From Haplodiscus bocki (taxonomy: Eukaryota), in the NCBI GenBank assembly GCA_965655095.1, contig OZ296651.1, positions 43,896,001 through 43,960,000 on the forward strand: DNA of 64,000 nt. Direction: 5' to 3'. The translations under genes were made by a program, and so were the position numbers. Positions 6,635 through 64,000 of this stretch are shown in pieces. Under the pieces are notes generated by a model. That model searched no databases. It was not told where the DNA came from and saw only the letters and a list, made by a program, of their open reading frames with translations. How positions within the stretch are numbered: position 1 is the stretch's first letter; each line of letters opens with the position of its first letter.

Positions 6635-6850
6635 ATAACGGCTCATCGACGGTCCACTAGCCAGTTAACGGCGGTATCATCGGAATTACCGGCGACGGCA
6701 AATTTCAAAAAAATTCGAACCGGGAGGAAACTTTCAGTAACACCAAAAGGTCCCCCTACGAAGTTTTATGGTACCGAGACAATCAATTTTGACATAAGTG
6801 ATACAGCTTCTATGGCTCAGCCATTTTTTGCCCCCCCCCCCCCTCCCACA
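6635..6850. repeat. Juxtaposed fragments of two interspersed repeat families
   Basis: 6635-6725 (aacggcggtatcatcggaattaccggcg) matches 22255-22355. 6750-6790 (ccccctacgaagttttatggtaccgagac) is the reverse complement of the ~125-bp unit in the 61650-62740 array. Confidence 0.65.
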
Positions 6851-8243: not shown

Positions 8244-10599
8244 TGTAATAGACTTCCTTTGCTGCTTCTGAAATTGGTACAGAAAAAATATGAACGCCCA
8301 CGTAAATGGGCATTGGGGCAGAGTAGCACTTCCTTTGATGTCAAATTGAGCACTTTCCAGAGTTATGACAAAAAGTCAATGAGCTGAAAAACTTCGGCCA
8401 CATTCTCTATGAGACTTCAATAGTTTGACAACCAATTTGTCTAAAATACAGCGTCTTTTTTCTGCAAGAACGTAGCTAGGATAACCCAGTCCGCCACCGA
8501 ATATTGAACATACCCTTTGATTAAAAACATATCAAACTAAATCATAATTACGCAAAATCTATAAAGTTTTGTCTTGATGCTGTAAGTTCCAGAGCAAAAA
8601 TTAAAATGGTGCCGCGAATTTTCGCATTGGCAGTATAAAGTCGAGCTTGAAAGCCAGGGGTTGATGACCGTCATGTAATGAGATAGGTTATAGTTTGTTT
8701 TGTTTTGTTTTGTTTTTATTGGCCAACGAAATTTTTCCCACAAGGGCCAGCGGCGGCTGCTCCCGGATACTTTTTACACTTGCGGCTACTCAGCTACGTA
8801 CACAGTTCAATCGTTAATACGCTCGCAGTCAATTCTTACTCCTTCGGTCAACTACTATACAGGCGACTGTCTAATACGCAATTTAAAACGCCCTTAATTT
8901 TTACGCCTGCGGTTAATTGTCAATGAAGTCAAAAAATGTTTCCGACTAAGTAAGTGAGATATTCAAAAACAATGTGAACTTTGATTTTTTAAGAGAATTT
9001 ATAATATCCAATGAAAATGTTATGATAATAAGGGCAACTCATTTACCGAAGGTGTGATTTTTTGAGTATGCCGTCACCGAGGAAAACAATATATGTAAAA
9101 GTACCACATACTTTATTTTTTTGCTGGTATGCATGAACGAAATCTTGCACAGCTCGGAAATCCAAAGCTATTGACTAAACACCTGTTTCCTCTTCGAGAA
9201 CGTTTCTGTTCTACAAATGGTCCTTCACAAGTATCTTCGAAAAATTTTTCCTTTAGTTTTTGCTGCTGAACCTGACTTTATTTGTTGTCTGATCGACGCC
9301 ACAAAACGTTTTACTGCACAGACAAATCATTCCAGCACAACAAAACTTTTTAAACAAGGCATCTTCTTGTTTGTGGTGTTTTTAATGTTCCTGACAGATT
9401 CAGGGGAAGAAACTGCTGAACATCGTCGGGAGAAATGTTCCTACGATCACTTCTTCTGAAAGTGTTCCTTTTTGATACAATCTTCATGAGAAGCGAAGAA
9501 CAGGGTATAAGGAAAAAGTGTTCGTTTCAATTTCTCTGAAAGAAATGAAATTACAAAACCTTTGAAAAACCAATTAATGCCAATTAATTAAAAACTCTTC
9601 AAAAATTCTTTGTTGCGGATGTTTCACTCTTGCTTTTATGTTCGAGTAGTTTCATTCACGACTGGAAAAAACAACCTTGAGAACTTTAGTAATTTCAGAG
9701 CTTGCGCAGGTATGCCTACAACATTTTTAAGAATTTGATAGTCAAAATGAGTTTTTCTGATGAACTGCATTTAGGCACACGACTGTAAGTTTTGCCATTT
9801 GGCGGAAGAGTTTTGAACATTGTCAAACAAGTCATAGGTTGAATTACTCTTACCTTGCTGCTCTTATAGCCTTGCATAGAACAACACCAGTAGCAGCTCC
9901 AAGGAAAGCCATAACATCCAAGGTCTCAACGTTCCTAATTTTGAAAACAGAGACAAACTGATTCATATTTTCGAAGACTGTTGGTTCCATTTCTTTTCCA
10001 ATCAATAGCAAATGATAGGGATAGGAGCTTTCAAGTTGATGTCTTCATCCAAATCATTTAACAACACCTCAAAGAGTGTTGAGATAACCCGCGAAGTGAT
10101 GTGGGACCTCAAATAAATCATTCTTTTGAGTTGATGAAGATTGTCGGAGTGGTTGTTTCTTCTTAAATCTATCCTCGTGCTCAACAACATACGCTCCATC
10201 AAAATTGCAAGATCGCCGAAACTCTCGTCTTCGTTTGCCCAGCGTTGACATGATACGTTCGACTTTTCTTAATGCTTAACGCAATTTACCGAAAATTGAC
10301 GCTAGTTTCCTTTTTACTTTTCCCCACAAAGCTTTTCGACAATTTGGAAGGCAGAGACTAGCGAGTGAAGTTCCCCCTTACAGAAAAACCGTCTTTTACA
10401 GCGAATTTGTGTTTATACAGACTAAACATGGAACATCTTTAACAACCGAAAGTCCTGCATCGACTTAAAAACTACTTTTTTTTTTACAAAAATAGATTCA
10501 GAATCAAACACCAAGAAGTTTTGGAAGATCACTTTGTCTCAACTACCTCAGTATCGGTGTATGTCACCAGACCAAAAAGCATTTCTCTTGGTTGATAAA

Positions 10600-15150: not shown

Positions 15151-15549
15151 AAAGACATCCCCAAAGGAGACCGTAATTTCACTATTCTCGTCGCAATGCA
15201 CTTTTCAAACAAATAACGAAGTTTTAACCTATGGATAGAGTAGGAACTTTCCAAATGATGTTTGGTGGAAACGTTTCTGTCAATCAACATCGCCCACAGG
15301 TTTACGATCGCATGAAAAAAAAACGGTGGAAAGCATTGAGTTTGCTTTGGATGTGACTTTTGACTCCACCAACACTTTCGAAAGAATGAGACAGAAAATG
15401 TCCTCGACTTATTCAACCCATGTCAAAAAACTCAAAAGTCAATAGTTTTTTGGAAGTTGCTGTTGCTGGAAGACATGACGGACTCAAAGGAAAAAAACAT
15501 AACACATTTTTTTGAACGAAGAATTTCAGTCAGGGTAATGAGCATCACA

Positions 15550-18500
15550 GCACTCAAGTTGTTCAACCCATATCTGCAAACCATGTCTTGCACCTTGGCA
15601 GACATAAAGTTTAGTTGACACTCGCGGACTCGTCAGTTTATTGTTAAAAAGCTGCAACAAGCATTGCATTTGGTATTTTGTTAGTCTTTTTGTGCTCTCG
15701 ATCATATGGTTGATTACCAAACAAACTTCTCTAGTGAAAAAAGCCGCTCGATGTTCCACCTTCTCGAATAACCTGTGTAGATTGAAGGTACCGGGCGATG
15801 ACCAAACATTTATTCTTCATTCTCCGAGCATTCCAACATGTTTTCCAAACGAGCACTGTACGAAATCTTCAAAGAACCACCAAAAAATACTGGCAAAGGT
15901 TTTGATAAGAACAAGCGTTGACGTATCGAAATTCAAGTGACTTACTTTTGGTGGCGAGAATAAATTTGAAAAGAGTCGCAGAACAATCTTTTTCAAAAAA
16001 TGTCCACCAAATCAAACCTTTTCCCCATTCATCATTTTGAACCTGACTTAACTTGATGCAGAGTTTGTTGATGTATTCCTATAAAATAACACAGTCGCAT
16101 TAGAAAAAGAACATTTTTCACAAGAGAAGAATTCCTCACATATCAAATTGAAAAGAAATGCAACTATCATTTTGAAACATAGCAAAAACCGCAATCAAGA
16201 AGAACTTGTCTGCCAAAGTTGTCCGAGATTTCTATTGAGCGCGAAAAAGCTTCCCAACTCCAATTTCCTGAGCATGGTTGTAATATATATTGGCGTTTCT
16301 CTAAGAGTTTTTGCAAATGATGTTATATGAAAACGCTTAGTTCCAGATGATCAGTTCAATTTTCAATAGGCTGCCGAAATTGAGTCGAGTTAAGTTCTGA
16401 TCGAAAATACCAAGGAAAGAGTCAGAGGAACCTGCGCTCCCTTCAAAAATTTCAAGAGCAAAAAAAAATTAAAAGAAAACGTCTACAGCACTTGGATCCC
16501 TACATAACTTGACTTGAGATATCGCAATTTTACATCCAAAGGCCGATATTTGCTACAACTACAGATCGCTTATACACCGAGCCTATTGTTTAATCATAAC
16601 ATTCGAAACATTGAAAGCTCCTGGAAGATGTGACTACTTTGAATTTATCGAACAACTATCATTCTTTGATGAAATAACAAAAATTAGGAATGTTTTCAAG
16701 TACCAATTTGTTGTTGAAGTTGAAGACTTGACAGAAGAATTAATGCAAAAAACATGAAGACAAAGTGTTTGGAAAAAACAATGAAATGTTCTGTCTGCAG
16801 AAATGCTCAGGAAAAAAAGTCGACGGAGGAAAAATTGTTAGATCAAGATAAAGATTTTTCTGCAAACCAAAAAGATTTTGGGCCAATGACATTTGAAAAT
16901 TTCATTTGTGAGGTTTTTAGTTAAATCGGAAGTTTGGCACATCAAAGAATCACGTCCCTCAAAAATATCCTATACCTAATAGGAGACGGTGAAAATAAAG
17001 GCTACAAAAAAACACAAATCGCTTCAATTTCTGAAAACAATGAACTCCAGGGAGAACGGAGCAATTGACATCAGACGGATAAAATTCAGGTACTCTGTTC
17101 TCCGGTGTGTGGTTTTTTTTATCAAATCCTAAGGGTGTTTTCAAAAGCCAAACTCGTGATTGGTGGTTATAAGGTGCGCATTCTGAGGTCTGCTTCCCTC
17201 TCACAAGTTGTTTTTAGCAGAAATTTGTAAATATGATGAGGTTATTACCAAAAAACCTCTAACGTACAAAATAGGGATAAACCATAAATTTGTTAAACGT
17301 GGAATGTCGTCTTTTCGGAAAATATTGATGTGAGTCATTTGTCGTTTTTTTCCTCTGCAGTAGAATTGGTTTCAGACAGATCGCCCCAAAAATTTCCAGA
17401 CAAGAATTGAGATTCTTTATGGTTTTCCACATGAGTTAGTCAGCAAAGATGAGCTGTTGGAGGTAGCATTTTCAAGAACATTTTACATGTCATTGTACTG
17501 GAAACTTTCTTAAAAATTTTTTTTTATTACGAGAAAAGTTCAAAACAAGAAGGGTTGTAGTTCGTGGAATCAAGACCTATCCATTCATCGAAGATAATGT
17601 CAGGATGACGATCTTGATCGATCGAGGGATATGATTGCTACTAGTACTGCATCAGAATGAAGATTTCCCCTATAACACAGAAATAGGAGTTTTATCTTGT
17701 AATCGAAGATTAAAGGTAATTAATTTTTAGTTTTGACCAAGTAGTCATGTTTAGGTTGACGGTCTAATTGATAGGTGTTTTGTAATGCAGTGGAACGGCT
17801 ACACAACCTAATAATCGTAAACGATATCCTTTTAATTGATTTGGGCATGAAATGAAACAATTACTGTTGGGTATCAATCAGTCGGAGGAACAAAAGCACT
17901 TTTATCAAAAGGTTTTCTTTCTAAATCACTTTAAAACTAAGTGCAAATTTGATAACGGGCAGTGTTTTACAAAGAAAAACAGACACCCGATAGTCTACCA
18001 TTCTGCGCTAATTGAGAATTTGAAATCACATGGTAAAACTACTCTTAAGAGATACATCAATTGAGAAACAGCTTTTGTTTTGTGGCTGATTAGTTGATTG
18101 GTTCTCATCTTTGGAAAAGCATTGAACTCATTACAGGAAGACGATATGTGAAGTGATTGCTGCTGGAGAAGTACATATTCCAATGTGAGAAGTTGTGGGG
18201 ACACAACGAAAGCAAGGATTCTCTGCTTTTGCTCAATTTCTTTGGAGAACGGCCAATAATTCCTCAGAAACCTTTTATTTTCAGCTACCAGACGCATCAG
18301 TGTTGACAAGTTGGATCTCGCAGCAGTGGGATTTTTGAAAGAAGTCAGTGGTACGAAAAATAACTAATCGATTGTTTGAAAATATGGATTGCAGGAAGTA
18401 TCACACGAGCGATATCTTTGCTACAAAATAAAAAGGCGGAAAAATTGAAGACGCAGAGATGTTTCCGGTACCATGGCAATTTGGAAATGACATGATAAAG

Positions 18501-19100: not shown

Positions 19101-19599
19101 TAATCAACACAACATGAAAGTTAGAAAGCGGTTGATGTGAGCCAGACCCAATTTTCACTTTCATAATGACGTTCCTAAATTGGTCTCGAAATTGTAGTTC
19201 GTGCAATCTTCGTTCGTTGTGCTAATCTCATTATGGATTATTCAAAAAACAGTAAAAAGAGCTTGCATAGGCTAACTTAGAAACAACTACTTAGAAATCT
19301 TGACAAAGTTATTTATCAACAAAATTAACCAAAATCAGTTCAACCAAGAGTATCTTTTCAAGAATGCTCTGACTAGCAGAAAGGCAGAAAAATGATAACC
19401 TACTTCGATTCCACTGTAACGTTCATTTAACAATTAGTTTGGTATCCAACACTCCGGCGTCAGTCAAGTTGAAGTGCCCAGACGAGGGTAACCAATTGTA
19501 GACTATGACACGTCAAACCATCGCCTTTGTTGAAACTACGCTAAAGCAAAGAAAGCAACGGTCTTCCAGAATGACGGTCCGCCAATCACCTATGGAGAA

Positions 19600-22500
19600 T
19601 TAAAAGATCACTTGGTGCAACGTTTTGATTCAACATCAATGCGAGACGCAACTAAACGGTAAACATTCCGAACCGTTTGGCGAATCGTTGAGATTGGAGC
19701 TAATTTCCAACTTTGTTCTTCAAGATAATGCAAAAGTCAATGTGTTGAGTGAAAGACTCTCTCCAAATGTCTTCGAAAAAAGTTATTGTTGTTGGGGAAT
19801 ACATGTAGTATGGACAGATGGACATAATTGTACCTACACGTTGTTTGCTTTCGCTGTGTTTTGTCTGTTGCAAATCTCCGCAACGATACATTTTCCATTT
19901 TTAACTTGTAACCTAGCAAATTGCAGGGCGAAAGCCGGATACTGATGGCAAACCTTTTTGCTGACTTCGTTGAGCGTAAGGATTACTACTTTCTGGTGCA
20001 ACACTTCAAACAGTTGACTGAGAAACGAATTGCACGTCCAATTCTGCGTTTGCAGTTTCTAATCGTTAAGCCTGTGAATGGACTTCACAATGTTATTGCC
20101 CTCTGTTTTAAACTTATATAGCATTTATTTTTTCCTTTTCTTCCGTGTAAATGCTCAGCTTGTGCAATGTGCGCGTTGTCTTTCAAACAAGTTGAAAATT
20201 TTTGCCAGACTTGAACTCAACCTTTTTACGTAACATTCAGTCACGGCAGGAGCCATATTAAAAAACCTAAGTGTAAAAAACCTATCCAAATAAATACAAC
20301 TGTAAATGTAACAAAAAGCTGCGCTTGAAAAAAACCGCCCGTGTAATAACTTTCCAGATATCAATTAGGGGATGACGACCCTCATATTATATCGGCTCCT
20401 CTGGCGTAATTTAATTTTTGAGGGCTCTTACCCACTCCTCGTTGTCAATTCCAACCATACACTACTGGCCTTGAGTAATTGAAACGTGTCGGTCGAAGCC
20501 ATGAGAAGGGTTTGATTTCCAACCTTTAATTTCCAAACAACGAAACTGTTTTGTAGCAATTCTGTATCCCTATTGCTTGTTTCATAGTTACCGGTACAGG
20601 TTTATGTTTTTGTGTTTTGTCACTTCCTGGGAAGACGTTTTCAGACTACGTCTACCATAAGGGTTTCAATGCAACCTTTGAAGCTTCTTTGTAAAACAGA
20701 AAAGAGCTATATGGGAGTACAGGGGGACCGTGTGGACCATCATAGTAGCCGTGAGAATACACGAATTGAAGATTTCTTCGAAAATCTAATCTTGCTGCAG
20801 AGTCAATTTGTTTATGAAAGTATCAGTCCGGAAGATTTCGGACTACGTCAACGCAAATTCCAGCACAACGAAGTGTGTGCTACAGTCGAACTCTCTGGTT
20901 ATCCCAGAAAGCGGCTAGCGAAGTCCACTTGATTTAGGGCAGCTCTGTTTGGTCAACTGCTTCTTATCGTATGGGGCAATTTGTAAACCTTGACGAATTG
21001 AAATGCACTGCAACTTCAAAGAAAATTCTGGAAGAGCAGCTGCAAGGGATTCGCTGTTATCTTCTTGAGCATACGGTTCACGAACAACTACAAATCGATT
21101 TTCTCAACAAACCTTTCAGTTCAAAAAAATTGTGACAATACGTCAATTTGAAACCTAACTCGAGACGTTTGATGCAAAACCGCAGGCGCTCGCATACATT
21201 GCGTGCTCAGTGGAGAACAACTGCGTTCGGGTATCTGAACTGGTTGGAAAAACCAATCCATTCGTTGAGTCCACCCGGGTCGTAATTTTGGCTGAAATTT
21301 TTCTCCGATAACGGCGGATCGGTGGTAAAAAATCGCAAATCCGCCCGTAATTTGTAGAAAAATAACGGCAGTTACCGGCGTTTCTTAGAAATTTAGCAGC
21401 GGTTACCGGCGTTTCTTGGAAAAATAACAGCGATTACAGCCGTTTCTTAGTAAATTTCCCTCAATAATTTACCACCCATATCTTAGAAAAATAACGGCGG
21501 ACTTCGAATCGCCACTATCTTAGCAAAATTTCGCCAAACAAATTTTTCGCCGCTGTTGTCCAACATTAACAGCGAAAGTCTTCAATTTCGGACCCTTTTA
21601 ACTAGCTAGTCAAAAGGATAAAAAACGTGAATCAAGTTGTCGGACAACGTTGCCTTCCACAAATCAAGTTTTCAGATGATGGGAACAGCAGTCTTGATGT
21701 TTCAAACTGGAGGCTCTGAGCTCGCGGGCACAAGTTAGCCCACTTGACAGGATCCACTACGAGAACGTGGCCTCCATAGGACCCCACTACCTGACAAACA
21801 GAATCGAGATAACACAAAACTGACAACAAATGAAAAATCAAACAGCCAGATTCCGATATGGAACAAACTGGAAAAGACTCAAAAAGACAAAACGTGCTAG
21901 TCAAAACAAAAAAAAATTAGAAAATAGTTGTCGAACCATCTTCACGCCCACAAATACAGTTGCAGATGATGGAACCGATTGTCTATTTTTTTGCAGGAAA
22001 CTTGATTTTTCCACCTTTTTCACGGAATTTTCGAGGCGAAGATTTCGGTGTACGATAGCTTCCATTTTGAAACAAAAAGTATTGCAACGTCTTTTGTTTT
22101 TCTTTTGGGGAAACCTGGTTTGCCGATAGGGTACACCCTTTTCTGCATCCGTACGAAAAACTATACCGCCGCTTTTTGTGGAATATCGGCGGAAATAACG
22201 GCTTTTCGTTAAAAAATAGCGGCGATCAACTTCAATTCGCTGCAGAAGTTCTACGGTAACGGCGCATCGGCTGTTCTTAGAAGATTACCGGCGGTATCGG
22301 CGGAATTACCGGTGATCGTAGAAAAACAACGGCAAATGTCAAAATAATTTCGACCTTGGAACAGATTCTTGGAAAAAAGATCCTCAAAAGAAACTGAAAA
22401 CAATAATCATAGTTGCTGGCTTCAAAGATCATCGAAGCCCCACTCATGTTTTCTGAAATACTCTTTATCCATTTAATTGTCACGAAAGTTAATCGCTCAA

Positions 22501-48286: not shown

Positions 48287-48519
48287 TAATTCTTGAGGAG
48301 GCTCAGTCTAAGGGGTTGATAGAGAACGTGAACGACGTATACAAGGGAAAAACCCTTCTGCATTATGCCAATGAGCATGGCAACGTGGATGCAGTGAGAG
48401 CTCTTCTTGTTTCTTTCAATGCCGACCCAAGTGTCAAAAACGATAAAGCAGTCACTTGCTACTTGGCCAGTGTCAACAACAGCAAAATCGCAGATGTCTA
48501 CCACTCTTACTTCCTGCAG
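48287..48519 (+). CDS. Internal exon of ankyrin-repeat / GH20-like gene (first ankyrin repeat)
   Basis: tttcag acceptor ends at 48286 and the CAG|gtaaaa donor follows 48519. Encodes GKTLLHYANEHGNVDAVRALL...ADPSVKN (ankyrin). Ends in phase 0, matching the next exon. Confidence 0.85.
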
Positions 48520-48870
48520 GTAAAAGCTAAATTTATATGTTATGGTTGAATTAAGTCAAATTATAGTGGATGCCAAAAGACGTTGATTAACGGGTAAATT
48601 ATCAATTAACGTGTGATCAATGTTTGGAACAGTTCAACTCAAGTTGTGTGTGAATATCCGCGTGATCATCTCATATCTCAACGTCTGGTAAATCTTGGAC
48701 ATTCTTTAACAGTATTATCCATCGTGTTTTTGTTCGCTTCCAATTTTTCTAAGATACTTTCAAAACGAAAACGGACGAACTAGATGCACTTGTTTAATTC
48801 CAATGAATTTTGTCGCCTAGTTGGCGAGTCAAATGTTTATTCAAATTACATCATTACATCATATTTGCAG

Positions 48871-50549
48871 GTTGTGACAAATGACAAATTAGAACAAATT
48901 GAGAAATGCATCGCTGGAGGCTTAGACCCAAACCAGGAGTACCCTATGGAAGGCGCATTCATTCTGCACTGGGCATGCCAGTACTCGGAAACTGAAACGA
49001 TCCAGTGTTTATTACGACATGGGGCCAATCCTCACGCTTTTGACACTGACGGACTCACGGCTTTACATGTTGCAGTAAAGTATGCAAACGCAAGCGCAAT
49101 CTCAGTTTTAATTGAAAGCCAAACTTGCGACATCTCTATAAAAGCGGGAGCAGGTGATTATGCTGGTTTCACTGCGTATGAATTGACTCAGAGATTTTGC
49201 CCCCAGTTCTCGCATTATTTTGAAAATGACCAATATGTGAACGGAAATGCGCAAGACGAAAGTATCGATGTCGCTGAAAACGAACATAACCATTCAGGTG
49301 GTTTAGTGACAAAATCTGAGGATCTGTCATTCAAGGGAACCCTGTCGGTCATATCTCCAGAGCCTTCATTGCCGCCACTTCAAAATGATGTTGAATTTTC
49401 CATGGAACTGACTTCGAAGCAGTCAGATGATAATGCAGCTCCCTGGGATTGTTTTGACTCAGCAAAAGAGGCCACTGGCCTTGTAGTGTGTCCCGTTCCA
49501 AAGGGAGTGAACATCGTCGCAGGCTGTGAACCGTTCAACTTTCCTGCAGGATCCGAGGTGTTGGTCTATCCTCAAAATTTCGAATGTTGGCAGAAGATTT
49601 TAGACCTGATTAGCATGATTATGAGCTCGTTGGGAAGAATTGGCTGCAAGTTTAACATGTCAGTTGTATCACCTGGAATGCAAAACCAGCAACAAAAATC
49701 AGAAAAACCGGTTACGAGCAAGTCACTCTATCCTCTACATATCGTGTTACTGAACCAATCATCTGGTAATAAATGTGGGAGCTATGTGCTAAACATGCAG
49801 TCTAAGCAATGTTCTTTAAAAGCAGCGACTGTCGAAGGTGTTCGAAACGGGATGGTTACCTTTTTGCAGTTGGCCATTGACCGGGAAAATATTCATCCTG
49901 CTGTGATATACGATGAAGCAGTGTTCCAAAGCAGATCTCTGTTGTTTGATGTCAACGAATTTTTAAACTGGAAAGTTGGAATTCTTTATGAAGTGGCTCT
50001 TTTAGCTTCCGTTTTGAAGTTCAATCAAATTGTTCTGCCTCTTACGTCATCAAATTTTTTCCCTGAAAACATGAATGGTTCGCCCGTTTTCACGCTGCAG
50101 AAAGTTTGCGAAAAGTTAGTTGACGTAGTTGTGCTTACAGAGAGATTTTGTCTCCAAACTTTGCCCTTTTTGGAAGTTTCGAGTGTAGAGCTTGACACGG
50201 ATCACGAATTGATGGCAGAGATTGATGTCTTGAAACATTTACTCAAGTGCTTCAACAACAAGAGTCGCGTTATTTTTGGGTCTAACTTATCAATGGTGGT
50301 GGCACAGAGACATGGGTTGCTGCTGCAAGTTATGTTTAACTTGGGCTTGGATCCAATGAAGACGGATTTGGTTGTGTGTCTGAATTCTCCCTCGGCTGTT
50401 AATTTGATTGGCTCTTCAGTGGGCCATGTGACCGTTTGTACAGATAGAAGTGACGTCATCAAAGAAGTGTTGAATTGTGGGTTGAGACTTGTTCTGAAAT
50501 GTTGCTCTGATCAGTCGTCTTTGTTTGGGAGAGTGGAGCTGCCTCAAAC
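48871..50549 (+). CDS. Large exon: ankyrin repeats, GH20 domain-2 (Glyco_hydro_20b-like) and start of a degenerate GH20 barrel
   Basis: ttgcag acceptor ends at 48870 and the AC|gtaagt donor follows 50549. Ankyrin: LHWACQY..TIQCLLRHGANP, GLTALHVAV. GH20-like: VCPVPKGV, GSYVLNM...AATVEGVRNGMVTFLQL, IYDEAVFQSRSLLFDV. Confidence 0.9.
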
Positions 50550-53500
50550 GTAAGTTTTTTGGCTTTGTTTGTTTGTTTGTTGTTTTTTCAGACTATGTTC
50601 AGAATAAACTAAGAATTAATCGCAATTAACAAGACATGATGCTGAGTGTCACCTAGACGATGGTGTGGCAATATCAATGAGGCAAATAAGCACTTACATG
50701 TACAATGATCGGCCTGAAATTTCTAAAAAAACATTGAATAACAATTTGATCTTCTGTGTTTAGTATTTTTTCCGGCACTTTACTAACAGTTAAGTCGCCG
50801 ACTAGTACAGTTTTTCTTTCATTTTCGTTTCCGCATTTTCTGGTGTACCTTCCAATTTTAAAAACCTTCCAAAGTCGGCAAAACTTTGTGATTCCCCTCT
50901 TTGCATATGCTCGAAATTTTTAAATGACCGTAAACAACGAAAATCTTCGTGTTACCCTTTACTTAAACTGGAAATTTTTCGGAAGGCAAGCACGGAAATT
51001 TTTCGTGAGATCCTCTTGCGTCTTCCGATTTTTTTCGCCAACACAAATTTTGAAAACGTCTCGCGATACTCCCTCGCATATAGACGAAAGAGTTTCAAAA
51101 AGTCCATTTTCATATACTCGCAACTTTTTGGAAAGACATGCAAAGAAATCTGAGATTCCCCCGACTTATCCCTCGATAATCCGCTGTTAGAATCTCCGCC
51201 ACTTTTGACAGCTTGATTTTGGGGGGAGTAAATACCCACCAAATTTGGTTATACGCCAACCTTGACCAAATGATTACACATTTGACATTCATTGTTGAAT
51301 ATAAGTTAATAATTTCGAGTCCCTTCTTAATTTTGTGACCGAAATTGAGGGAATATTTTACTTCGCTGTGGTACAGAGTTTTCTTGAAAAGTGAAAATCT
51401 AATCAGCATTTATTTGCTGTGTTCAGACGAGAAAAATCGAAGATATTTTTTCTAATTTTGATTCCCGAAGAACCAGAGTTGCGAGAAAAATTGATACCAA
51501 AATGCAGAGAAAAGGTCATTTCTTTGTGTTTTAACTTTTGTTTTTTAGGAATGATTTATAGTTTATTTCGGCTTTTTTGTAGAAAATGTGTCGTCAATAC
51601 TGCATTATGTCTAGAGGAACATTAATTTTTTTGCCAGAGTTTCAATTTTTTTTCTTCCTTTGGGCAAAAACTTTCCCGCTGGGTTGTCAAAACTGCATCT
51701 TCCGTTTGTGGAGGAACATTTTGAATGATTAAACTTTTTCCAAATTTATGCAGTTGCTGAAGCCACAGTTGGCAAATCACCGGAAAAAAGTCTACACATT
51801 GATAGTGATTTTCCTTTCGTAATACACGTTACAACACAAAATATTAGCCAGTAAGGTAACAATAAATAATAAAATTGCACTACAAATGCAATTATTGATT
51901 TTCTCGGGCATACAGTTTTAACATTTTTTTTTCAGACCAACACAAGTTAGTTCGCTTATAGTCTCTACGAATTTTTATGATGTCCCCCTCCATATATTAT
52001 TTTTCCCGATTACTTCATCGTACCTCCTTTTATAAACCGAAAAACATCCAGAAAAACAAGAATTGTGAATTTTTATCTTGAATTTTCTTATGGGACTTCG
52101 GGAGAGTTTAATTTTACGTAGTACTTAGTGTTACTCTGTTTTAGTTTTTGTCGCTTTTTTCAAACGACATTTTGAATTTTTTGAGTTGTGGAAACGCAGC
52201 AAGGCTCCGTGGAACTACAGGACAGACCATGCGGACCATCAGAGCACGGAAATGAAAAAAATGAGAATTTTTTTTCTGACTCCCCAGTCAAAATACTTGC
52301 GAAAGAGTGAACCCCGAGACATTCCGAATTCATTAACACCAATTGGTTGGAAGATGGAATGAGGGTTAGGGGAGGGACCCTCTGGTTATTTCAAAAGTGT
52401 TCCGGGGTCCTATCCGCTTTGGGCGGCCGGTTTTGAAACCTTTTCTGCAGTTACAAACAATTTCCCGGAGCAGTGTTAAAATCTTGTTAGCTGAAACCCC
52501 ATCCATAAACCGAAGACTATCTCAGCAGTCAATTGACTGGAAGTTTGCCGCAAAAACGCCTGTCTTGCAACGGATGCCATCTGCTGTTGGAAAATTACAA
52601 TTAGTGCTTGGAAAAAGATCGATTGAAGCTGCGAAATCGAAGAAAATTTTATTTCGGTTGAATTTATTCGTGCTATTTGGAAACAATCAGTCGAATTCTT
52701 TGCTTTTCTTTGTTTCTAAAAAGTTTACTAGCTGGAAAATTTCAACTCAGTGGTTCCGTTTTCCATCTTTTCCCACGAAATAACTTGTTGCTGTTGGGAA
52801 TCTGATACTGCCTTTTGTTTGGGTTGTTCGTTAAAACTGATTTTGTCAATGATTGTAGATCGAATGAGGCGCGCTCATTTCACTTGTGTCGTGGACTCTC
52901 AGCTTAGTAGAATAGATGATGTATTTGGAATATGTTTTGCGTACAATCGTGATTTGCAAACGAGGAAAGCAAATGTTCCTCCCTGCGTTGTATAATAAAA
53001 CGGTCTGAGTCTGGGACTATTGGTCGGACTAGGGTCATTCAGCTACTGGAGTTTGTGCTGAGAACCTGGGGAGGTGTATCTTCAAATATCTGGAAAAAAT
53101 CTGATTTTTCAAACACAAGTAGAGATTTTTTCCAGAAAATCAAAGATGTTCTTTCTTACGTTGTTTATTGAGACTGCTTTTCTAAATAACTTGTAGTGAG
53201 ACCAAGGGCCATCAAGAGCTCATTGCAATAGTTGTGTCCCAGAGTTTCTGCGAAATAGCTTGGGAGGTCTTTTTTAAACTTTGTACTGCAAAAAAATTTT
53301 TTTGTGAAAGTCAACTATGTTTTTCTTGTGATATTCATCAAAACTGTTTTCAGAATGACTAGTAAGTGGAATTGCGTCCATATAGTTCCAAATAAACTAC
53401 TCGCTGCTTTGAGTTGATGTTTTTTGTATGGTCTGTTATCAAGTTTGATGGTGAAAAACGATGACTTTTTCTTGAAAAATCTAAAAAAAACCAAAAGAGT

Positions 53501-54471: not shown

Positions 54472-54927
54472 GCTGACCAGCATCACTCACAACTCAACGT
54501 GTGAAGGTCTTCTCACTGAATGTACTTTTGGTGCTGAGGCAGTTCCACTTTTTGTGACGTGTGTACCCCAGCTTGTCACCTGCTCCGACTACGCTTGGAA
54601 CTCCTGGTCATCTCATCAAATGTCTCCTGACTTTCTCCACAGCGTCATTGACAAGTTGCTGTTCAACCAGGCCCCTGGATTTGGCAATGCGTTAAGTCTT
54701 CTTTCTCACGTGGAAAAAAGTCTTATGCCGCCCATAGTTGGAAGGAATTACAAAAGAGGGTCTAGCAATAAGTCTTGGAGTCCAGATCAGGTTTATCCGA
54801 ATAGTTTGATGTCAGCTTCTGGGACTAGTGGTCTGAGCCAGATTCTGAGAGCAGTGATGGAGCCAGGACTCATATCCTTGGATCATTTTGAGCCGCATTT
54901 GATAGCACAAGCTGAGAAAGATTTGAG
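54472..54927 (+). CDS. Next exon of the same gene (C-terminal part of GH20-like barrel)
   Basis: tttcag acceptor ends at 54471. Phase 2 joins AC+G to give Thr in frame. Encodes CEGLLTECT...P..VTCSDYAWN. A GAG|gttaga donor follows 54927, so the gene continues downstream. Confidence 0.8.
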
Positions 54928-56519
54928 GTTAGAAAGCAGAAGACGCCAATGTCCTAAGTCGGTGCCGCCCGTAAGGCTCAAAACATGCGTATGGGAGACT
55001 TGTCATGATCGTGTTTAATACAGGAAAATTTTGGTTATTCTGGGGAGCGATTTTCACGGAATTGCGGGCTTTTGACTTCTGTAAAAGTTTTCATTATGCA
55101 AAGAATAGGCATAGGAATTGGCCCTTGGAGGTTTATAATGACTGTCAACCTCGCACCGAAAGTTTTTGCTTCGACTTAGTAAAAAATTGTATAGTCTCAG
55201 TTCTACGGTTAAAACAAGCTCAAGTCGGCGCCGTACTTAAGGCTGGTAATACTCGTGGGGCTTTGGTTATTGAAAAGCTTTTTTGGAAAAAATGTCATAC
55301 CTTGATGTAACTTTATGAAGAAAGTGCGAAAAATTACTAAGGGTTCTTTTCTACGTTATATACTTCCTGAGAAACTTAGTTGCGAAAAATTGGAATATAT
55401 TCGAGCGTTTAGTAAAATCTTCAAAGCGTTGACTAAAAGTTCATGCGAGGCCTGACTAATAATTTCAAAATGTACGCAGTACATCAAATAATGAGTAATT
55501 TTTGAAATTTTCCCAAGGCATTCAAAACATGTCTTTTGTCATTTTCGGACTTTTAATTTTGAAAAATAAAGAGTGGCGGAACCTGCTTTCATTCAAATAT
55601 AACTGTCTGCATAATCCAAGTTTCTAAAGAGACCCAGGTGAAGAAATTTGAGTTATTCATTATTGACAAATAAGATTTTTTGTCGACAAAAAGTATATGG
55701 TCTTTCTCGAATGCGTTTGCATTTTTCGGAAAATATACCATGATACCTCCTTGCAGTTGCCTAAAATTTTACCGATTGCTCAAAAAACCACAGTCGTCTC
55801 AAGAGGGTTACGAATCGTAAGTAGTAAGGAAAACGGCCGGCCTTTCAACGGGGGGGGGGGGGGTCCTTGTTTCAAAACTGGAGGACCCTCCTTAGGCCGG
55901 CCGTTCACTTTTCTTAGGACCCCTACCTAAAACGACAGTCCGGTGAAATCCGGACTAGAATGCCGAGTGCCGCTCGGACTTCGGAAATCTTAACAGATGG
56001 TCTGCATCTCGTGATTGCAACTCGTCCGGTTGATTTAATTAGTCGGATCACATTCGTGTCGCGCGGCGCACATAAAAAGTTATTTCGAGAATGCGGTGGA
56101 CTCCAAAACAATGAGACCAAAAGAACTAGACGTGAACAGAGTGCAACAATTTTTCGATCGACTATCTAATGATAAAGCCGACGATTTTGATGTCTACAGA
56201 AATTGTTTTGAGCTTTTTTTACTTACCTGAGAAATACTACTCTGAACGTAACACTAGAACAACTCCAAAGCTTGTTGAAAGAAAAGCCAGGAACCAAATG
56301 TGGATTGTTTTACAAGCATAGTAAAGTTTACAGACTACTTGTGATTGTTTCTGACGCGCAAATTTCACTTGGAAATTTCTGTGACAAAGAAGACTTTCGA
56401 TACGAGAAACAAGTTTGAAAGATTTTGGTCAGCTTCAATTCGTCCCTTATGGAGTATTTTGAGATTGAAATTATCACCCCAAGCACACTGGTTTAATGAG
56501 TTGGAATGTTGAACAAAAA

Positions 56520-56790
56520 CGAAGACATTGTTATTGATTTTAAAAGTTTTACTTAACAACTGTATATTGAAAGAGCTGACTGTTGGTGGAAAAAGTTTTA
56601 AGACACTGTTTTTCAAAGCACCGAAAAAGCTGCTTGACTGTTCAATCACACAACGGCGCCCGATAAATTTGCTTACAAGAAGAATTCTTGGTATTGACTG
56701 GATTAGTGGTTTTTACGCTTACAGCGTGATTAACCAATTTTTTTTTGCCTTCGAATTCGTTTTCCCAAATTGAGTTTTTCGGCAGTCATG
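56520..56790 (+). pseudogene. Polinton accessory protein, DEDD/DnaQ-exonuclease-like remnant
   Basis: VIDF then (frameshift) ILKELTV...LFFKAP...LLTRRILGIDWISGFYAYS resembles the KELA..F.FKPP..WL...HGL.W..G...Y family seen in Mavericks. Confidence 0.5.
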
Positions 56791-57878
56791 TTAACTCCTT
56801 CTTTGAGCGTTTGTTGTTAGCAGCAGTAAACAATAGTCATATGGTCACTTTGACCGAAGACGAGTATATTGGAATTGGTTCTTCAGTGTTTTGAGAAGGG
56901 GTGTGATCCAGTTGTCTCTCTCAGTGTACTACCTACAAAAGTCTGCGTTTGGTGTTGTTGACGCCGGAATTTTGGATAAAATATGCCAGGAGAGTCAGAG
57001 ACCCGGCAGCAAAGTTTTCCATTATGAAAAAGGAAATACCACCCCTCAACTTTCCCAACAAGAGACCCCCACGTCCGATAGAAATTCATACAGGCTATTC
57101 TAATTTACCCAAAGAAGAGAAGCAGATTGTGAAAAGACGGCAAGTGGATAAGATTCGGTTCTTCCCTGCTTTCGGCAAGAGACCCTCAAGTTGCAAAATT
57201 GATGTAAATACTGAAGACGCCGAATGGAACTCTTTCATTATTTTACATGACACGAAGGAGTTTGTTTTACCTAGTAGTAGTAGTTTGTAGAATCAACTAA
57301 TATATGCATGATTTGTAGACTGATCATTTTTTAAACTATTGTACCGTTCTCTTCTTTCTTTTGGAACTATACTAGTTTACCGTTCTTTTCTTTCTTTTGA
57401 AACTCAAAGACAAGAATTTCTTGTTCAAGTGTACCTTTACTCTCTTGAACATTGCCCAGCCAGAAACACTGTCTAAAAAGACACACAGTGAAAGGCATCT
57501 CTTTTAGTGCTCAGAAAAAATGCCTGCTCTTCTGCAGTACATTTTTCAAAACGAATTCTGACTGCTTTTATAATGATTCTTTTCTAAGTGAAAATCTCTT
57601 CATGTTATTGTTTCGGATAATGTGTTCGGAGCCAGTTGAAGTACCAGATCTAATACCAATTCATGAATGGTTTATGATGAGAACAATGTAGAAAGATCCG
57701 CTTGGAAGTTTTTGCAAATCTACAAAATTACCAAGATCCGAATGTACTTTGCATCTTTACTTCTGAAAACATTTTGTTTGATGAAATTAAGTTCTTTCGA
57801 CGTTGCTTGTGATGACAAACCTTTTTGGACATCACTTCTATGGGGAACAGTTGGATATCTTTTGCCTGACCCAAAACC

Positions 57879-58517
57879 ATGAATAACATAATTTTACAAC
57901 AGAGAATTCTCTTGTCCGTAGGTAAACCTTCTGGATCGAGAAAAACAATACCATTTTTTTCATTGTTGACTTCCAAAACGTTTTATCCCTGGTTCGAAAA
58001 AAATTGTTTTTTTAATCGCGATTTTCAACTGCTCTTGAAAAAAGTTGAGAATAAGATGAATATTGTCAACTGTCTGGATTTGGAAATGATAAAAACGCTT
58101 CAAAATTGGCTGCTCATTTTTGACGATTCCTGCGAAGAAATTTATCAAGAGAAAGACTTTGAAAAAATTGCAGTTTCTGGTCGACACAGAGGGATCCACA
58201 GTATTTTTGTCAAACACAACTTGTTCCAGCAAAATCGATGGTCGCGTACAATTGACCTCAATACTACACGTATTTTTCTCTTCAATTCACCACGCGATAG
58301 TCAACAAATTGAAATTTCCGGAAAACAACTAAACAAAATCAACTTTTTGAAAGAGTGTTACACAAAGGCAGTAGCAGAGCCACATAGTCATTTACTCATT
58401 GACTTGGGCACAGTAACAAGTGATTGTTTGAAATTTTGTTTAAACCTTGTAGGTCCTGAACCAACCACATTTTATCTGCCATCTTCACAAGCAAAAATTA
58501 CAGAAATCAACAATTAG
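57879..58517 (+). CDS. Polinton FtsK/HerA-superfamily (A32-like) DNA packaging ATPase, Walker A eroded
   Basis: VGKPSGSRKT (Walker A, cf. GPSGSGKT), LLIFDD (Walker B), SGRH, HNLFQQ..SRTIDLN...FNSPRD, LLIDL. Confidence 0.88.
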   Translation: MNNIILQQRILLSVGKPSGSRKTIPFFSLLTSKTFYPWFEKNCFFNRDFQLLLKKVENKMNIVNCLDLEMIKTLQNWLLIFDDSCEEIYQEKDFEKIAVSGRHRGIHSIFVKHNLFQQNRWSRTIDLNTTRIFLFNSPRDSQQIEISGKQLNKINFLKECYTKAVAEPHSHLLIDLGTVTSDCLKFCLNLVGPEPTTFYLPSSQAKITEINN

Positions 58518-58543
58518 AGAGAAAATTTTGCGTAGTCTGTCTC

Positions 58544-58807
58544 TTGGAAAAACTCACTTCAGTTCAGCAACAAAAACTCTTGAAAAATGGTGACACGGAT
58601 TTTCTGATATTTTGCACTGAATTTGCACTCGATGTTATAAACGGTACTGCGGGAATCAATTTGAAAGAGCTACATCCTCATGAAAAGCAACTGAGACTGC
58701 TCTGTAGAAACTCAACGTCATTCAAGAAACATCGAGAAAATTTAATGTCATCAATAGGTCTTATGTTAATGAATTTGATAAATCATGCTTGTTTTTTTGG
58801 TATTTGA
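58544..58807 (+). pseudogene. Small conserved Polinton/adintovirus virion-module protein
   Basis: LLK....LIFCTEFALDVING...L..HEKQLR.L....SFKKHR..L resembles the small helical ORF that follows the ATPase in Mavericks. Confidence 0.5.
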
Positions 58808-59469
58808 CAGATTGATTTTTGTTATGGATACACCTGAAGTTAATCTCAAGTTTTCTTACAATCAATTTTTGTTTCGAATACTCAGGAATTTTTTCTTGTA
58901 CCAAGGAGTTGCTATTCACAACAAAACAATTCAACATTACAAGCTTTGACAAACCCAGACGTTGAACAATAAACGAAATCTCTGACTTTTTCCCAAAGAA
59001 ATAAAACGTTCACCAAAACCTAACCAGTGGACAAAAGGAAGAAAATCACAAACGGAAACGTTTTGAAGACTCTTGATTTGCTGAGAGCGGCCCAGAGACA
59101 AAAAACAAGAAATTTTGAGCAAAATTGAAGCTTCTGACGTTATTGATTTTAATGAGGCTTGTTAATTAACTGTGAACACGAATTCGACGAAAATTTCACT
59201 TTAACATTACAACATACAGCAACCAAACTAAAATTTGAAAAATCCCGTGTGTTCCATTGTCTTGAAAGAATTACAGTCAAAACCCCGATTTGGTCCCAAA
59301 TAAAAACGTGCGAAAAATTCCGAATTGTACGCTCGAAACAACTGGGAAAAAATAGACCACTCTCCAAAATTTTGACATGCCACGGACGAAAAATTTGAAG
59401 AAACTTTTAAAGGCTGAGCTTCTGGATCGAAAACGTGGACAAGTCTCTGGAACGGAGCAAAAGTTTTGT

Positions 59470-60320
59470 AGAAACCGTATACACAAGGTCCCCCCGCGGA
59501 TGGAAGTATTCAAAACTTACTAAATGCAAGTAAACTGTCAAATTTCAAAAAATAATTTTTTTGGTTGGAACAGACGCTCACGTAAAGTCCCGCACTCCGA
59601 GAAAAAAGTTCCTTGGTTGAAAGTTCAAGCCTACAGGATAAACGAAATTTGGTCGATTGATGTTGCTTACATGGACAAAACTGCCAAATACAACAATGGT
59701 TTAAAGTATTTACTAGTTGCCGTAAATGTTTTTAGATTTTTGAGTTGAACCCATGAAAACCAAAACTGCGACAGATAATACTCTTACTTTCACGAGAATG
59801 ATAACAAAACTTTTTCCTGAGAATGTATGGTCAGACAAAGGAACAAAGCTTAAGGGAGGGTTCAAACACTTTTGTGATTCCAACAAAAATGTGGAGCTGT
59901 ACAGTACACACAGTGAAACAAAGTCTGCTTTTGCCGAGTGAAATATTCGATCACTCAAAATTGTCAATTTTGAACATTCGGAAAATAAATGGTCCTTTCA
60001 CTATATCAATAAGCTTGATGACTTTCTAGATTTTTTTTATTTCATGAGTCAATCGAGTGGCTGGTTTAGCTCCAGAAAAGGTTACGACAAATCATGGATC
60101 TCAGTTGTTTTCACTGGTCTCTAATCAGTCCACTAAACACCTATAAAAGCCAAATTCAAGCCGGCAGACTTTATGAGAGTGTGAAAACAAAATTTACTTT
60201 GGAAAAAAGTTAAGCAAAACTTTACCGACGAAATCTTTGAAATTGAAAAAATTACCACTCTGAATCCTCCTACGTACACTGAGAGATTCCAAGAGAGCAA
60301 AAATTCTGGGTATTTTTCAT
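59470..60320 (+). pseudogene. Polinton retroviral-like (rve) integrase, frameshifted
   Basis: YTQGPPADGSIQNL, INEIWSIDVAYMDK..KYNNGLKYLLVAVNVF, VWSDKGT, KSAFAE*NIRSLK, KFKPADFMRV, FTDEIFEIEKI...PPTY. Confidence 0.9.
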
Positions 60321-60327
60321 CAACCTT

Positions 60328-61209
60328 TTTGAAGTGCACTTGCTGTCTACAGCATCAATAAATACTTATGCTGACAATACACTAGCGTCATTCAGGAATC
60401 AACTCCCCTAAAAAGTATCTTTACAAGGTGACTGGCGTAACACACTCTCCGAAATTATTTTTCCTTTGGAGATAAACCTATTTTACACAGACTTTTTCTA
60501 TCACGCTTACAACATTAACGGCAAAGAAAAACAACGAAAACGATGATGATGAGGAGAAAAAACAATGGAGAGCAAGAAAACGTGGATAAAAAAAGTGTTG
60601 AAAAAGAGAAGGAGACTAAAGGGGTTTTAATGTTTTATCAAAAAAAATGAAACCGGGGCAGTACAGAAAAATTTGTAACGTACTCTTCGCACTTTATTCG
60701 AAACCTTCGTGTACTGTGCTACAGGAGCATCTCGAATCCTTGAAGAAGGAAGAGTCGAACTTGAATTCAATGCAAACGCTGGTTTCACATTTCCCAACAG
60801 AAACATCCCCAATATTCTCGTTTTTCGAGGAAGAGAGACACCTTTTGGCATCCACATAGGAAATGAAGATTTCGGAGAAGATAGAGTCCTTGGTGACTTT
60901 CCAAATAATCTCATCTCGGGCATCACCCTAGTTTTTGTGTACAATGATTTGGTTGAATACCAAAACACTGATGATGTAAAAGCACCAATTCTGGGAATCA
61001 TTGATTGTGGGAAATGCGTAGAGAACAGTGTGGTTGTGACAACACTAGGTTCGGAGCGAAGATCTTCTTTCGTTCTGAAATACCAGAAACTGTTTGTACA
61101 AAACATACAAACAATCAGCATCCAACTTAAATGTGAGACTGGTAATCTTGTTCCTTTCTTTGGCACAGGAGAAGTTGTTTTGACGTTGAAATTCAGAGAA
61201 TTTGCATAA
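60328..61209 (+). pseudogene. Polinton minor capsid (penton, single jelly-roll) protein, disrupted
   Basis: N-terminus FEVHLLSTAS..YADNTLASFRNQLP*..LQGDW...LSEIIFP. C-terminus FVYNDLVEYQ..DVKAPILGII...YQKL..NIQTISIQLKCETG.LVPF.GTG.V.LTLKFR. Confidence 0.85.
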
Positions 61210-61462
61210 TGAATGTTTATTGCGCCAAACATGTTTATTTACCCCATTTTTCTAGCTATAACAGACAACGAGGCAGTGGAATTGGTGCTTTAGCAGAAGA
61301 AATTGGTCGAGTTGCTTGACTTTTTGGCAAAAAGATTCTTTTACCCGCCGCAAGACAACATTGGGAAGGTATTGCTTGCACAAACTGTCACTGAAGTTTT
61401 GAAAGTAATCACAAAAAGAGAATCACCCCGGAAAGCAGCCAAAGAGGTAATATCAAAAACAA

Positions 61463-62910
61463 CACGACGGCCGGCTAGCACCGCCATATTTCTCGCCAAA
61501 TTACAGATTTTTTGTTCAACTTATGCAAACGGTTAAAAACAAAACTATTGTTTCGAATTTAGTTTTCAAATAGTTTCTAACAAACATCATTTCCACCACT
61601 GATTTCTGTACTTTTTGCAAAAGGGTATCACTACTTTCGGTTGAAAAATTTTTGTCTCAGAGTGCCGAAAAGGTTCGTGGATGATCCCTGCTTTGTTTCA
61701 GCAGATTTCTGGTATCGAAATTTTTTATCGGTAAGGGGAGGGGGAGAGGGAGTATGACGATTTGCTTTCAAAATATATTTTGTCTCGCAGTACCGAAAAA
61801 CTTCGTAGTGGAAGCCTTCTGTGCTGTGTTTCAGAAAATTTCCGGCAGCGAGAAAGTTTATGAATAAGAGTGGAAGAGAATATCAAGATTTTCCGCCGGA
61901 AAATTTCTCTCTCACAGTACCGAATCATTTGTTAAACTAACCCTTCTGTGTTTCAGAATATTTCGGGTATCGAAAAGTTTTACGCTTAAAAGGGGAATAT
62001 AACGATTTTCTATAGAAAATTTGTTGTCTAACAGTACCGAAAACTTTCGTACGGGAACTCTTCTTTGCTGTGTTTCAGAAAATTTCTGTTAGCGAAAAAG
62101 GTTATGGATAAGGGGGGGGGGGGCGGAGAGTTTCAAGATTTTCTGTCGAAAATTTTTTGTCTCACAGTACCGAAAAACTTCGTAGGGGAACCCTTCTGTG
62201 CTTCACAAAGTTTCTGGTATCGAAAAAATTTTTTGATACGAGAGGGGGGAGGGTAGGGAGGAAGTATCGCGATTTTCGATGAAAAACGTTTGTCTCACTG
62301 TGCCGAAAAATTCGTACAGGAACCCTTCTGTGTTTCAGAAAATTTCTGGTATTGAAAAATGTTAGTCATAAGATAGGGGGCGGATATCACGATTTCCTGT
62401 CGAAGTTGTTTTGTCTCAGAGTACCGAATCAATTCGTAGAGGAACCGTTTCGTGTTTCAGAAAGTTGCGAGAATCGAAAAATTTTATGACTAAGAGGGGA
62501 ATATCACGTTTTTCGACAAAAAAATTTGTTGTCTCACTGTATCGAAAAACTTCGCAGGGAGACCCTTCTGTGTTTCACAAAATTCCTGGTAGCGAAAAAG
62601 TTTATGGATAAGGGCGAGGGGGGAGTGAGGAAGTATCAAAATTTCCCATGGAATATTGTTTGTCTCTTAAGTGCCGAAATTTTCGTAAAGGAACCATTTA
62701 GTGTTTCTTTCGAGTATCGAAAAATGTTAGGGATAAATCTTGTAAATATTCGGCTCGACAGAGACTCGATCCCCGAACCTACTGCTTGAGAACCTTGTTG
62801 TCCTAACCCTACTGCTGTCATTACTTTTTGAATAAAAAAATTTTTCGTCTGAAAAAAAAGACGACCCTACTGAAAGAATAATTTTTCTTGCATATTACAT
62901 ATGCGGCGTG
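61463..62910 (-). mobile_element. Non-autonomous element carrying a ~125-bp tandem array and a tRNA-like segment
   Basis: Ends CACGACG...CGGCGTG, flanked by aaacaa/aaataa. Excision restores the interrupted viral reading frame. Nine tgtctc.cagtaccgaaaaacttcgtagg units lie at ~61650-62740. Confidence 0.75.
62752..62822 (-). pseudogene. tRNA-Glu(CTC)-like degenerate sequence (SINE-type head)
   Basis: The minus strand reads cagcagtagggttaggacaacaaggttctcaagcagtaggttcggggatcgagtctctgtcgagcc. This resembles the tRNA-Glu TAGTGGTTAGGA...CTCTCAC...GGGTTCGATTCC pattern, but the stems are broken. Confidence 0.5.
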
Positions 62911-63049
62911 AAATAATAAAGAGACAGATTGGTGGAAGAGGCAACCAGCCTCGAATATCCGAAATTAGAAAAACCACTACCAAATCAAAAGGCAAGCAGA
63001 GAAGTCGGTCGGATTTCTGTTCAAAAGTCAGAACTGTTGCCTAACGTTT

Positions 63050-64000
63050 AACCTCTGGAAGCATCACACAGCTGTTTGGACGTTTTTGAACGGTCACCAG
63101 TTTTGATTACTTTTGATTCTTCTTCTCAAAAAATTGGTCCACTTCATTCACCCAATGGGCCGATGCTTAAATTTGAAGTTGTTGGCAATAGAAACAACTT
63201 TTTAGACTTGCAAAAAAATTTTGGAGATAAAATGCAAAATATCACCATGCGATGGCTCAGATTTTTGATATGACGCACTTAATGCCGCCCAATGTGATGC
63301 TCCTGTCTTTCTTAACAACACTCTTCACTCGCTTTTTTCTAAGTGTACATTTACTGCCAATGGAATGAAAGTTTCAAGCCCAAACGGTGTTTACGCTCAT
63401 AAGGCTTTCATTGAAACCCAATATTCCAATGGAAAAGAGGCCAAGGATACGTGGCTAAGTTGTCAAGGATGTACTTACGAAGCAGACCCTGGAAACCATA
63501 CCAGTGTCGTCTTTAGAAGCAGAGACTAGAGAGTCCCGAGAGGTTACACTTTTTGGTAAAGGTGCAGCAGACATCTGCGACAAACACCTGCTCAGTGGTG
63601 TGACACTGCGTTTTGCTTTTGTTAGATCCAAGCGTCAGTTTGTTTTGATTTTTGACGGCGCTGCCAAAAACTACAAAAACATACTATCCCAAGCTAACCT
63701 CTACCTTCGTGAAATGACTGTGTCTGATCAAGTTTTTACTGCAATATAAGACATTGACAAAAACAACTGCTCTTTATCGCTACACTGAAGTTTTGCCAAA
63801 GACGTATCTAATTCCTCAAGGAAGTCGAAGCTGAAGCAAAGAGGATGCCATCAGCAAGAAGCCAATCAGACGTTTTGCTCTGGCTCTGATTCGGGCCTTT
63901 CTTTGCTTCAAATTAACAAATGCATTCCCTTATCAAAAACATGGCTTGAACGAGGTTTTAGTTTACCGCAATGGATAACTCATTGCAGGCACTCCTCTTT
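63050..64000 (+). pseudogene. Polinton major capsid (hexon-like double jelly-roll) protein, frameshifted and truncated by the window end
   Basis: HSCLDVFE...GPMLKFEV.G..NFLDL, FLNNTLHSLFS.C...NG..VS...VYAHKAFIET, LLSGVTLRFAFVRS..FVL, ANLYLREMTVS. Confidence 0.88.

Follow-up and report, generated by a model that had tools for sequence, protein, structure and literature searches.

The DNA analysed here is a 64-kb window (64,000 nucleotides) of contig OZ296651.1 from the 1.5-Gb assembly of Haplodiscus bocki, and its final part holds the beginning of an endogenous virus of the Maverick/Polinton type. The element runs from window position 55820 to position 7574 of L011, the 10 kb directly after the window (L011:1 is window 64001), and therefore extends 7,574 bases past the window, for a total length of 15,755 bp that includes a 1.45-kb later insertion. 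It starts with AGTAGT and ends with ACTACT. The L-numbered loci (L011-L080) are other stretches of the same genome, including related copies of the element, and PMC accessions here and below refer to excerpts of the papers concerned.

The left end at 55820, which an earlier note made from the letters of the window had proposed, proved to be exact. In all four sequencing runs compared, each of genomic DNA with introns unspliced, contigs leave the sequence there, with 9-14 contigs per run diverging into mutually unlike letters, as expected for the border of a dispersed element. The ACTACT right terminus that the note had predicted was located within the next 8.1 kb, at L011:7574. The left terminal inverted repeat (TIR; 55820-55886, plus strand), which begins with AGTAGT, is 84% identical over 67 bp to the right end, where the terminal repeat (L011:7510-7574, plus strand) is followed by a target-site duplication (L011:7575-7580) identical over 6 bp to the one preceding the left end (55814-55819, plus strand). 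A hairpin at the left end reaches approximately position 55916, with a DNA fold of -24.4 kcal/mol calculated without a shuffle control. The same end anatomy was present in both of the other copies in which both ends were read, each with its own 6-bp duplication. Taken together, the identical flanking duplications, the agreement between the terminal repeats, and recurrence of this anatomy in two of two copies indicate more than chance.

A Pfam scan of the window's own viral fragments, including the ATPase fragment, recognized no viral family, and for this reason the unaltered open frames of sister copies were used as references to map the viral genes by tblastn of the window and L011. The gene order is three accessory open reading frames (ORFs), an ATPase, a small ORF, a second ORF, an integrase, a minor-capsid candidate, a core-like ORF, and the major capsid gene, followed by a protease, two reverse-strand ORFs, one forward ORF, and a polymerase. 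The six co-directional genes named in the earlier note all lie on the plus strand in the order it gave, and the protease and polymerase that it expected were both found in the next 8.1 kb, but its gene list had missed one ORF (58808-59450), and the note is silent on a 1.45-kb repeat. Its viral call is borne out in the sister copies by a double jelly-roll fold and by matches to the Pox_A32, rve, and DNA_pol_B_2 families.

All of the following genes lie on the plus strand unless stated otherwise. The leftmost ORF (56111-56420) is eroded and gave no match to the sister-family references at an expect value (E) of 0.01. The next accessory ORF (56506-56737), also eroded, is 69% identical to its sister ORF and ~ 250 bp shorter than the sister copies, while the third, a small one (57009-57290), shows 69% identity to its sister ORF in a match without a stop. 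The second ORF carries an N-terminal D-x-E motif, which we take to resemble that of DEDD exonucleases; neither this reading nor a HUH reading of the H-x-H ORF described below found support in Pfam, PHROGs, PDB, or the Atlas. The A32/FtsK-type packaging ATPase (57879-58590) is broken, with a degenerate Walker A and a frameshift near its end, and is 74% identical to the sister ATPase (Pox_A32 E 7e-5). Across the sister ATPase ORFs, the Pox_A32 matches range from E 2e-5 to 3e-4, and the packaging ATPase by which Mavericks/Polintons are recognized is thus represented. It is followed by a small ORF (about 58510-58810) in the place of vertebrate Maverick PM, by position only according to the order in PMC8097293, and by a heavily broken ORF (58808-59450), mapped by its sister-ORF match, in the place of PZ, again by position only. 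The RVE integrase (59428-60300), likewise characteristic of Mavericks/Polintons, is 40-47% identical to its sister ORF (Pfam rve E 3e-9) and is broken by at least five stops plus frameshifts.

The minor-capsid candidate (60319-61209) is broken and only 30% identical to its sister ORF, with six stops in the match. Its position and size fit the role, it has no Pfam match, and its PHROG matches are to families of unknown function only; the candidate assignment is made by position, one gene before the major capsid, which is the place given for PX in PMC4028283. A basic core-like ORF follows (61209-63040) in the position of PW, by position only, with collinear matches at 61209-61470 and 62916-63040 and, in the Atlas search, unnamed clusters only, with low recognition. 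The broken major capsid gene (63034 to L011:312) is 45-69% identical to its sister ORF, and directly after it lies a broken adenain-like protease gene (L011:315-735). All three PDB matches of the protease are adenoviral proteases, weak (E 0.3) and with the His and Cys regions aligned, which points to the adenovirus-like cysteine protease typical of Mavericks/Polintons. The two reverse-strand ORFs, both broken, are the H-x-H ORF (L011:736-1325, minus strand), in which YH-x-L is kept in five of five aligned relatives, and a small ORF (L011:1309-1689, minus strand) that was placed by sister-copy mapping, as was the broken forward ORF at L011:2110-2583. The last gene (L011:3538-6780) encodes a family B polymerase of the protein-primed type that has zinc fingers at its N-terminus; it is broken and 35-61% identical to the sister ORF. 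The sister polymerase ORF matches DNA_pol_B_2 at E 3e-15, as a Maverick/Polinton polymerase should, and has weak endonuclease VII and C2H2 matches; an OTU domain at the polymerase N-terminus was not detected by Pfam at E 0.05 in the sister copies.

The fold of the major capsid was modeled from a sister copy. A model based on an alignment of 103 sequences reached a predicted local distance difference test (pLDDT) score of 85.8 and superseded a single-sequence model with a pLDDT of 30.9. When compared to PDB with Foldseek, the model matched 237 chains at E <= 0.001, the best being the Sputnik capsid (E 3e-16, template-modeling (TM) score 0.63), and it also matched iridovirus, PBCV-1, and mavirus capsids as well as viral capsids in BFVD. 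As modeled, the sister-copy major capsid is a double jelly roll, the capsid fold that characterizes Mavericks/Polintons. By sequence, the capsid profile gave no match in PDB, and against viral contigs it gave 95 pattern matches, none of which was confirmed as a relative.

The stops and frameshifts described in the earlier note are real, and each of the core genes in this copy is hit by stops, by frameshifts, or by both. The polymerase gene contains at least 12 stops as well as frameshifts and has lost ~ 650 bp in two deletions compared to the C1 copy. Changes private to this copy amount to 262 of 4,620 sites over five genes (5.7%) and are spread evenly across the codon positions (102/87/73), indicating neutral decay after insertion. 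In the ATPase, the differences between element families A and B are skewed by codon position (52/33/134 over 228 codons), indicating that the lineage was under purifying selection. The altered Walker A reported previously is degenerate in the window copy and canonical in both sister ATPases compared; judging from the sequences, it is part of the neutral decay and the copy is no special variant. The window copy is capable of neither protein-primed replication nor packaging. The core-like ORF is split by a 1.45-kb host repeat element (61463-62910, no strand assigned) that was inserted later and contains a 120-133-bp tandem array. This repeat has no counterpart in sister copies L021, L022, and L025, and both of its ends recur in L024 and L036. 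It also occurs at window 6727-6779. In its anatomy, it presumably resembles non-autonomous Helentron-type elements.

Upstream of the element, three plus-strand host exons form one phase-consistent chain. An exon with an ankyrin-like repeat (48287-48519), with AG before it and GT at 48520, is one open frame; a large ankyrin-repeat exon (48871-50549) ends in phase 2 with GT at 50550, contains no stop, and has a 73% identical homolog (P0002); and the penultimate exon (54472-54927), in phase 2 at both ends, has a 68% identical homolog (P0154). The large exon matches Pfam Ank_2 at E 5e-12, and a Glyco_hydro_20b (domain 2) match at E 0.0017 lies below the cut-off. The phase-2 donor that the earlier note had seen after 54927 is real, since the similarity of both homologs of this exon ends at the donor codon, and one of the two homologs itself ends there. 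A single acceptor-like site, giving a 20-codon frame, lies between this donor and the element. The downstream host exon that the note had hoped to find in the next 8.1 kb is present as a terminal exon of 150 codons (L011:7627-8080, plus strand), which begins 52 bases past the right end of the element after an acceptor AG at L011:7625-7626. It is open, its frame matches the phase-2 donor, its homologs are 76% and 51% identical, and poly(A)-type hexamers follow it at L011:8327 and 8336. The homologs of three exons (P0002, P0154, and P0159) all have 900,947 bases listed as their longest contig, in keeping with a single contig in a related genome. The intron measures 16,699 bases with the element and would measure 938 without it. 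The sense-oriented intronic location proposed earlier is, therefore, supported by exon frame and by conservation in other genomes, and we strongly infer that the element lies within the last intron of this ankyrin-repeat gene, from which it would be spliced out. Whole-exon relatives of the host gene were present in few records only, and a named ortholog was not found in the homolog searches. A candidate short exon was also noted at 50592.

We conclude with high confidence that the locus holds a 15.8-kb Maverick/Polinton provirus with intact ends and broken genes, which very likely sits in the last intron of an ankyrin-repeat gene of the host and would be removed by splicing. Given that a 6-bp duplication is typical of the family, an active ancestor would have integrated by means of its own RVE integrase, leaving the duplication. 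For that ancestor, we predict protein-primed replication starting at the termini and packaging of the DNA into double jelly-roll particles, steps that are drawn from what is described for the Maverick/Polinton family (PMC8097293, PMC8502044, PMC4028283). The acceptor would have survived because the insertion fell upstream of the host pyrimidine tract and AG. Since the last 46 intron bases are untouched and all host exons examined are open, splicing probably continued correctly, with the element removed as part of a 16.7-kb intron. After the insertion, the copy would have taken on neutral damage and a second mobile element.

Several observations weigh against parts of this interpretation. The capsid fold was obtained from a sister copy and not from the broken window copy, the minor capsid is a candidate by position, and the protease match is weak. 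Protein homologs spanning the exon junction were not found in homolog searches of the host exons, so that the exon join is based on phase and co-location. The terminal-exon homologs are similar only from a point at least 18 codons past the acceptor, because the homolog records begin at an internal start. Finally, the hexamer AATAAA occurs at 55565, ahead of the element, and at 14 further sense-strand sites within it. The missing junction homolog and the hexamer at 55565, along with a frame of exon 54472 that is open to 55018, would agree with an element lying between two host genes, the first ending at or soon after exon 54472-54927 and the downstream exon coming from another gene. This arrangement appears very improbable given that homology stops at the donor codon in both homologs, one of them ending there, that a strong acceptor in matching phase precedes the downstream exon, and that the three-exon homologs fit one contig of a related genome.

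An intronic element could also have altered the host gene, its poly(A) signals truncating some transcripts to yield a shorter protein without the last exon. We regard this as unlikely: the sense orientation, the excess of AATAAA on the sense strand (14 versus 8 antisense), and the growth of the intron from ~ 938 to 16,699 bases with the insertion 52 bases from the acceptor all speak for such an effect, but 15.8 kb of DNA at 37% GC would be expected to hold about this many hexamers (an estimate made without shuffling), and the last exon retains its open frame and 76% identity to its homolog. Domestication of part of the element by the host, with the altered Walker A as the sign of a new function, is hardly credible even though 215 codons of the ATPase form an open frame and one small ORF is free of stops, as the private changes in the ATPase (15/14/11 by codon position) are distributed like those of the other genes and the ATPase has lost 11 bases in four gaps.

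Related copies are abundant in this genome. A search with the left 301 bases found 67 matching rows among the 40 candidates scored out of 89, and a piece of the capsid gene matched in all 150 candidates scored out of 4,963, so that related capsid matches number at least 150 and belong to several families. The genes of the window copy share 76-82% identity with those of one sister copy. In a quick tree, it falls into a six-row group with family A (SH-aLRT 99); the window row fills 20% of the columns, and family C sits on a long branch. Copies with long open capsid frames are more numerous in families B and C, which look younger. Between motifs B and C, at a codon boundary, the family B polymerase gene is interrupted by an insert of 184-208 bp (e.g., L032:6265-6462). 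GT-AG was present at the estimated borders in 20 of 30 loci (L051-L080), with length remainders of 12/9/9, and the insert was absent from five of five copies of other subfamilies in which both flanks were matched, as well as from the window copy. In view of these sequence features, the insert is very likely a spliceosomal intron. Long tandem repeats follow the polymerase gene in family B copies at L032:7500-8800, L034, L035, and L044, and internal tandem duplications of element genes were seen in L037 and L048.

In family C (L045-L046), a related capsid (~ 45% in the searched piece) occurs together with an H-x-H ORF in the opposite orientation. No match of the family C polymerase to family-B polymerase pieces was found at E 0.05, and polymerase exchange in this family is possible. 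A 19.7-kb Polinton of a fourth family is nested in a family-A copy (L019:4628 to L021:4316) with a 6-bp duplication. Gene starts of the form TAAATG were found in 8 of 16 ORFs of this nested family, compared to 1 of the 64 ORFs listed for families A, B, and C, a number that also takes in flanking ORFs. We tentatively suggest, as a possibility somewhat short of probable, that the window copy would be a fossil within an acoel-centered, nuclear-transcribed polintovirus clade, in which a sister family fixed a polymerase intron before spreading and became dependent on host splicing for its replication; with a second family that uses poxvirus-style starts in the same genome and is nested within copies of this family, this would involve two life styles as well as polymerase exchange between families.

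Other observations were made in and around the window. Faint, older remains of Maverick polymerase, ATPase, and capsid genes are present at 9067-9639, 15444-15686, and 19111-19783, and two 29-bp inverted repeats that match perfectly and have 255 bases between them, resembling a miniature inverted-repeat transposable element, lie at 1538-1850. A tandem array of ~ 1.6-kb units (L013-L018) starts roughly 20 kb beyond the window. At L012:3094-3465, there is a conserved-looking host exon, which we take to resemble STEEP1/CXorf56.

Compared to known systems, the locus is a typical degraded Maverick and mostly an ordinary genomic fossil. A degraded copy is the rule, given that 96% of vertebrate Maverick loci are degraded (PMC8097293). 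With the vertebrate Mavericks/Polintons of that paper, the element shares (AGT)2//(ACT)2 ends and a 6-bp duplication, the features by which such elements are defined; the run integrase, minor capsid, one ORF, major capsid, and protease; two ORFs after the ATPase; and the condition of the copies, which are mostly degraded. It also falls within their range of size (12.7-24.6 kb) and TIR length (46-1,447 bp). All core genes are on one strand here, which among the vertebrate Mavericks in the same excerpt is the case only in Xenopus tropicalis. Unlike in those elements, the polymerase here is at the far end and not beside the ATPase, and there are extra accessory ORFs. The polymerase intron of the sister family likewise has no counterpart seen in the vertebrate Mavericks, as far as the excerpt of PMC8097293 covers them. 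Nuclease inserts in Polinton polymerases and polymerase exchange have been described (PMC10748475, PMC11161782), as have introner insertions in dinoflagellate Polinton-like elements (PMC11957031). Adintoviruses of the Polintoviricetes (PMC8502044, PMC11161782) have in common with this element PolB, an rve integrase, an FtsK-like ATPase, an adenain-like protease, and jelly-roll capsids, with the gene set lying between inverted repeats in an animal genome. In contrast to them, Pfam detected no OTU here, and C2H2 fingers and a weak endonuclease VII match are found instead.

Among viral structures, the best match of the capsid by E-value was the Cotesia sesamiae bracovirus protein R9XLG5 (23% identity, TM 0.38), from an insect host. 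A Maverick has reportedly been transferred into a wasp bracovirus, as the title of one study cited in PMC4028283 has it, and R9XLG5 is presumably the capsid of that Maverick.

Judging from this locus, the last intron of a conserved gene can grow 18-fold through an insertion ~ 50 bases from the acceptor and still be tolerated. Several Maverick families of differing ages in a likely acoel genome, one with a polymerase intron, would extend polintovirus sampling to an early-branching animal group and would caution that screens for open frames undercount such elements. The proposal in the earlier note that this could be an undescribed lineage holds only to the limited extent that a gene-level description of acoel Mavericks was not found in the literature searched, but as a repeat class, Mavericks have already been reported in an acoel, making up 4.5% of the genome of Praesagittifera naikaiensis, in which intronic transposons are common (PMC6451197). 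The excerpted main text of PMC9911081 does not mention Mavericks, and its supplementary repeat table may list them. The closest named proteins, which are the sole and indirect indication from this analysis that the host is likely an acoel, are unannotated Maverick capsids of the acoel Convolutriloba macropyga, labeled 'uncharacterized protein F54H12.2-like' (e.g., XP_075253281.1). These are 57-58% identical over 97-98% of the sister-copy capsid and, in a quick tree, fall outside the 23-row clade (SH-aLRT 99) that unites this family with its sister family.

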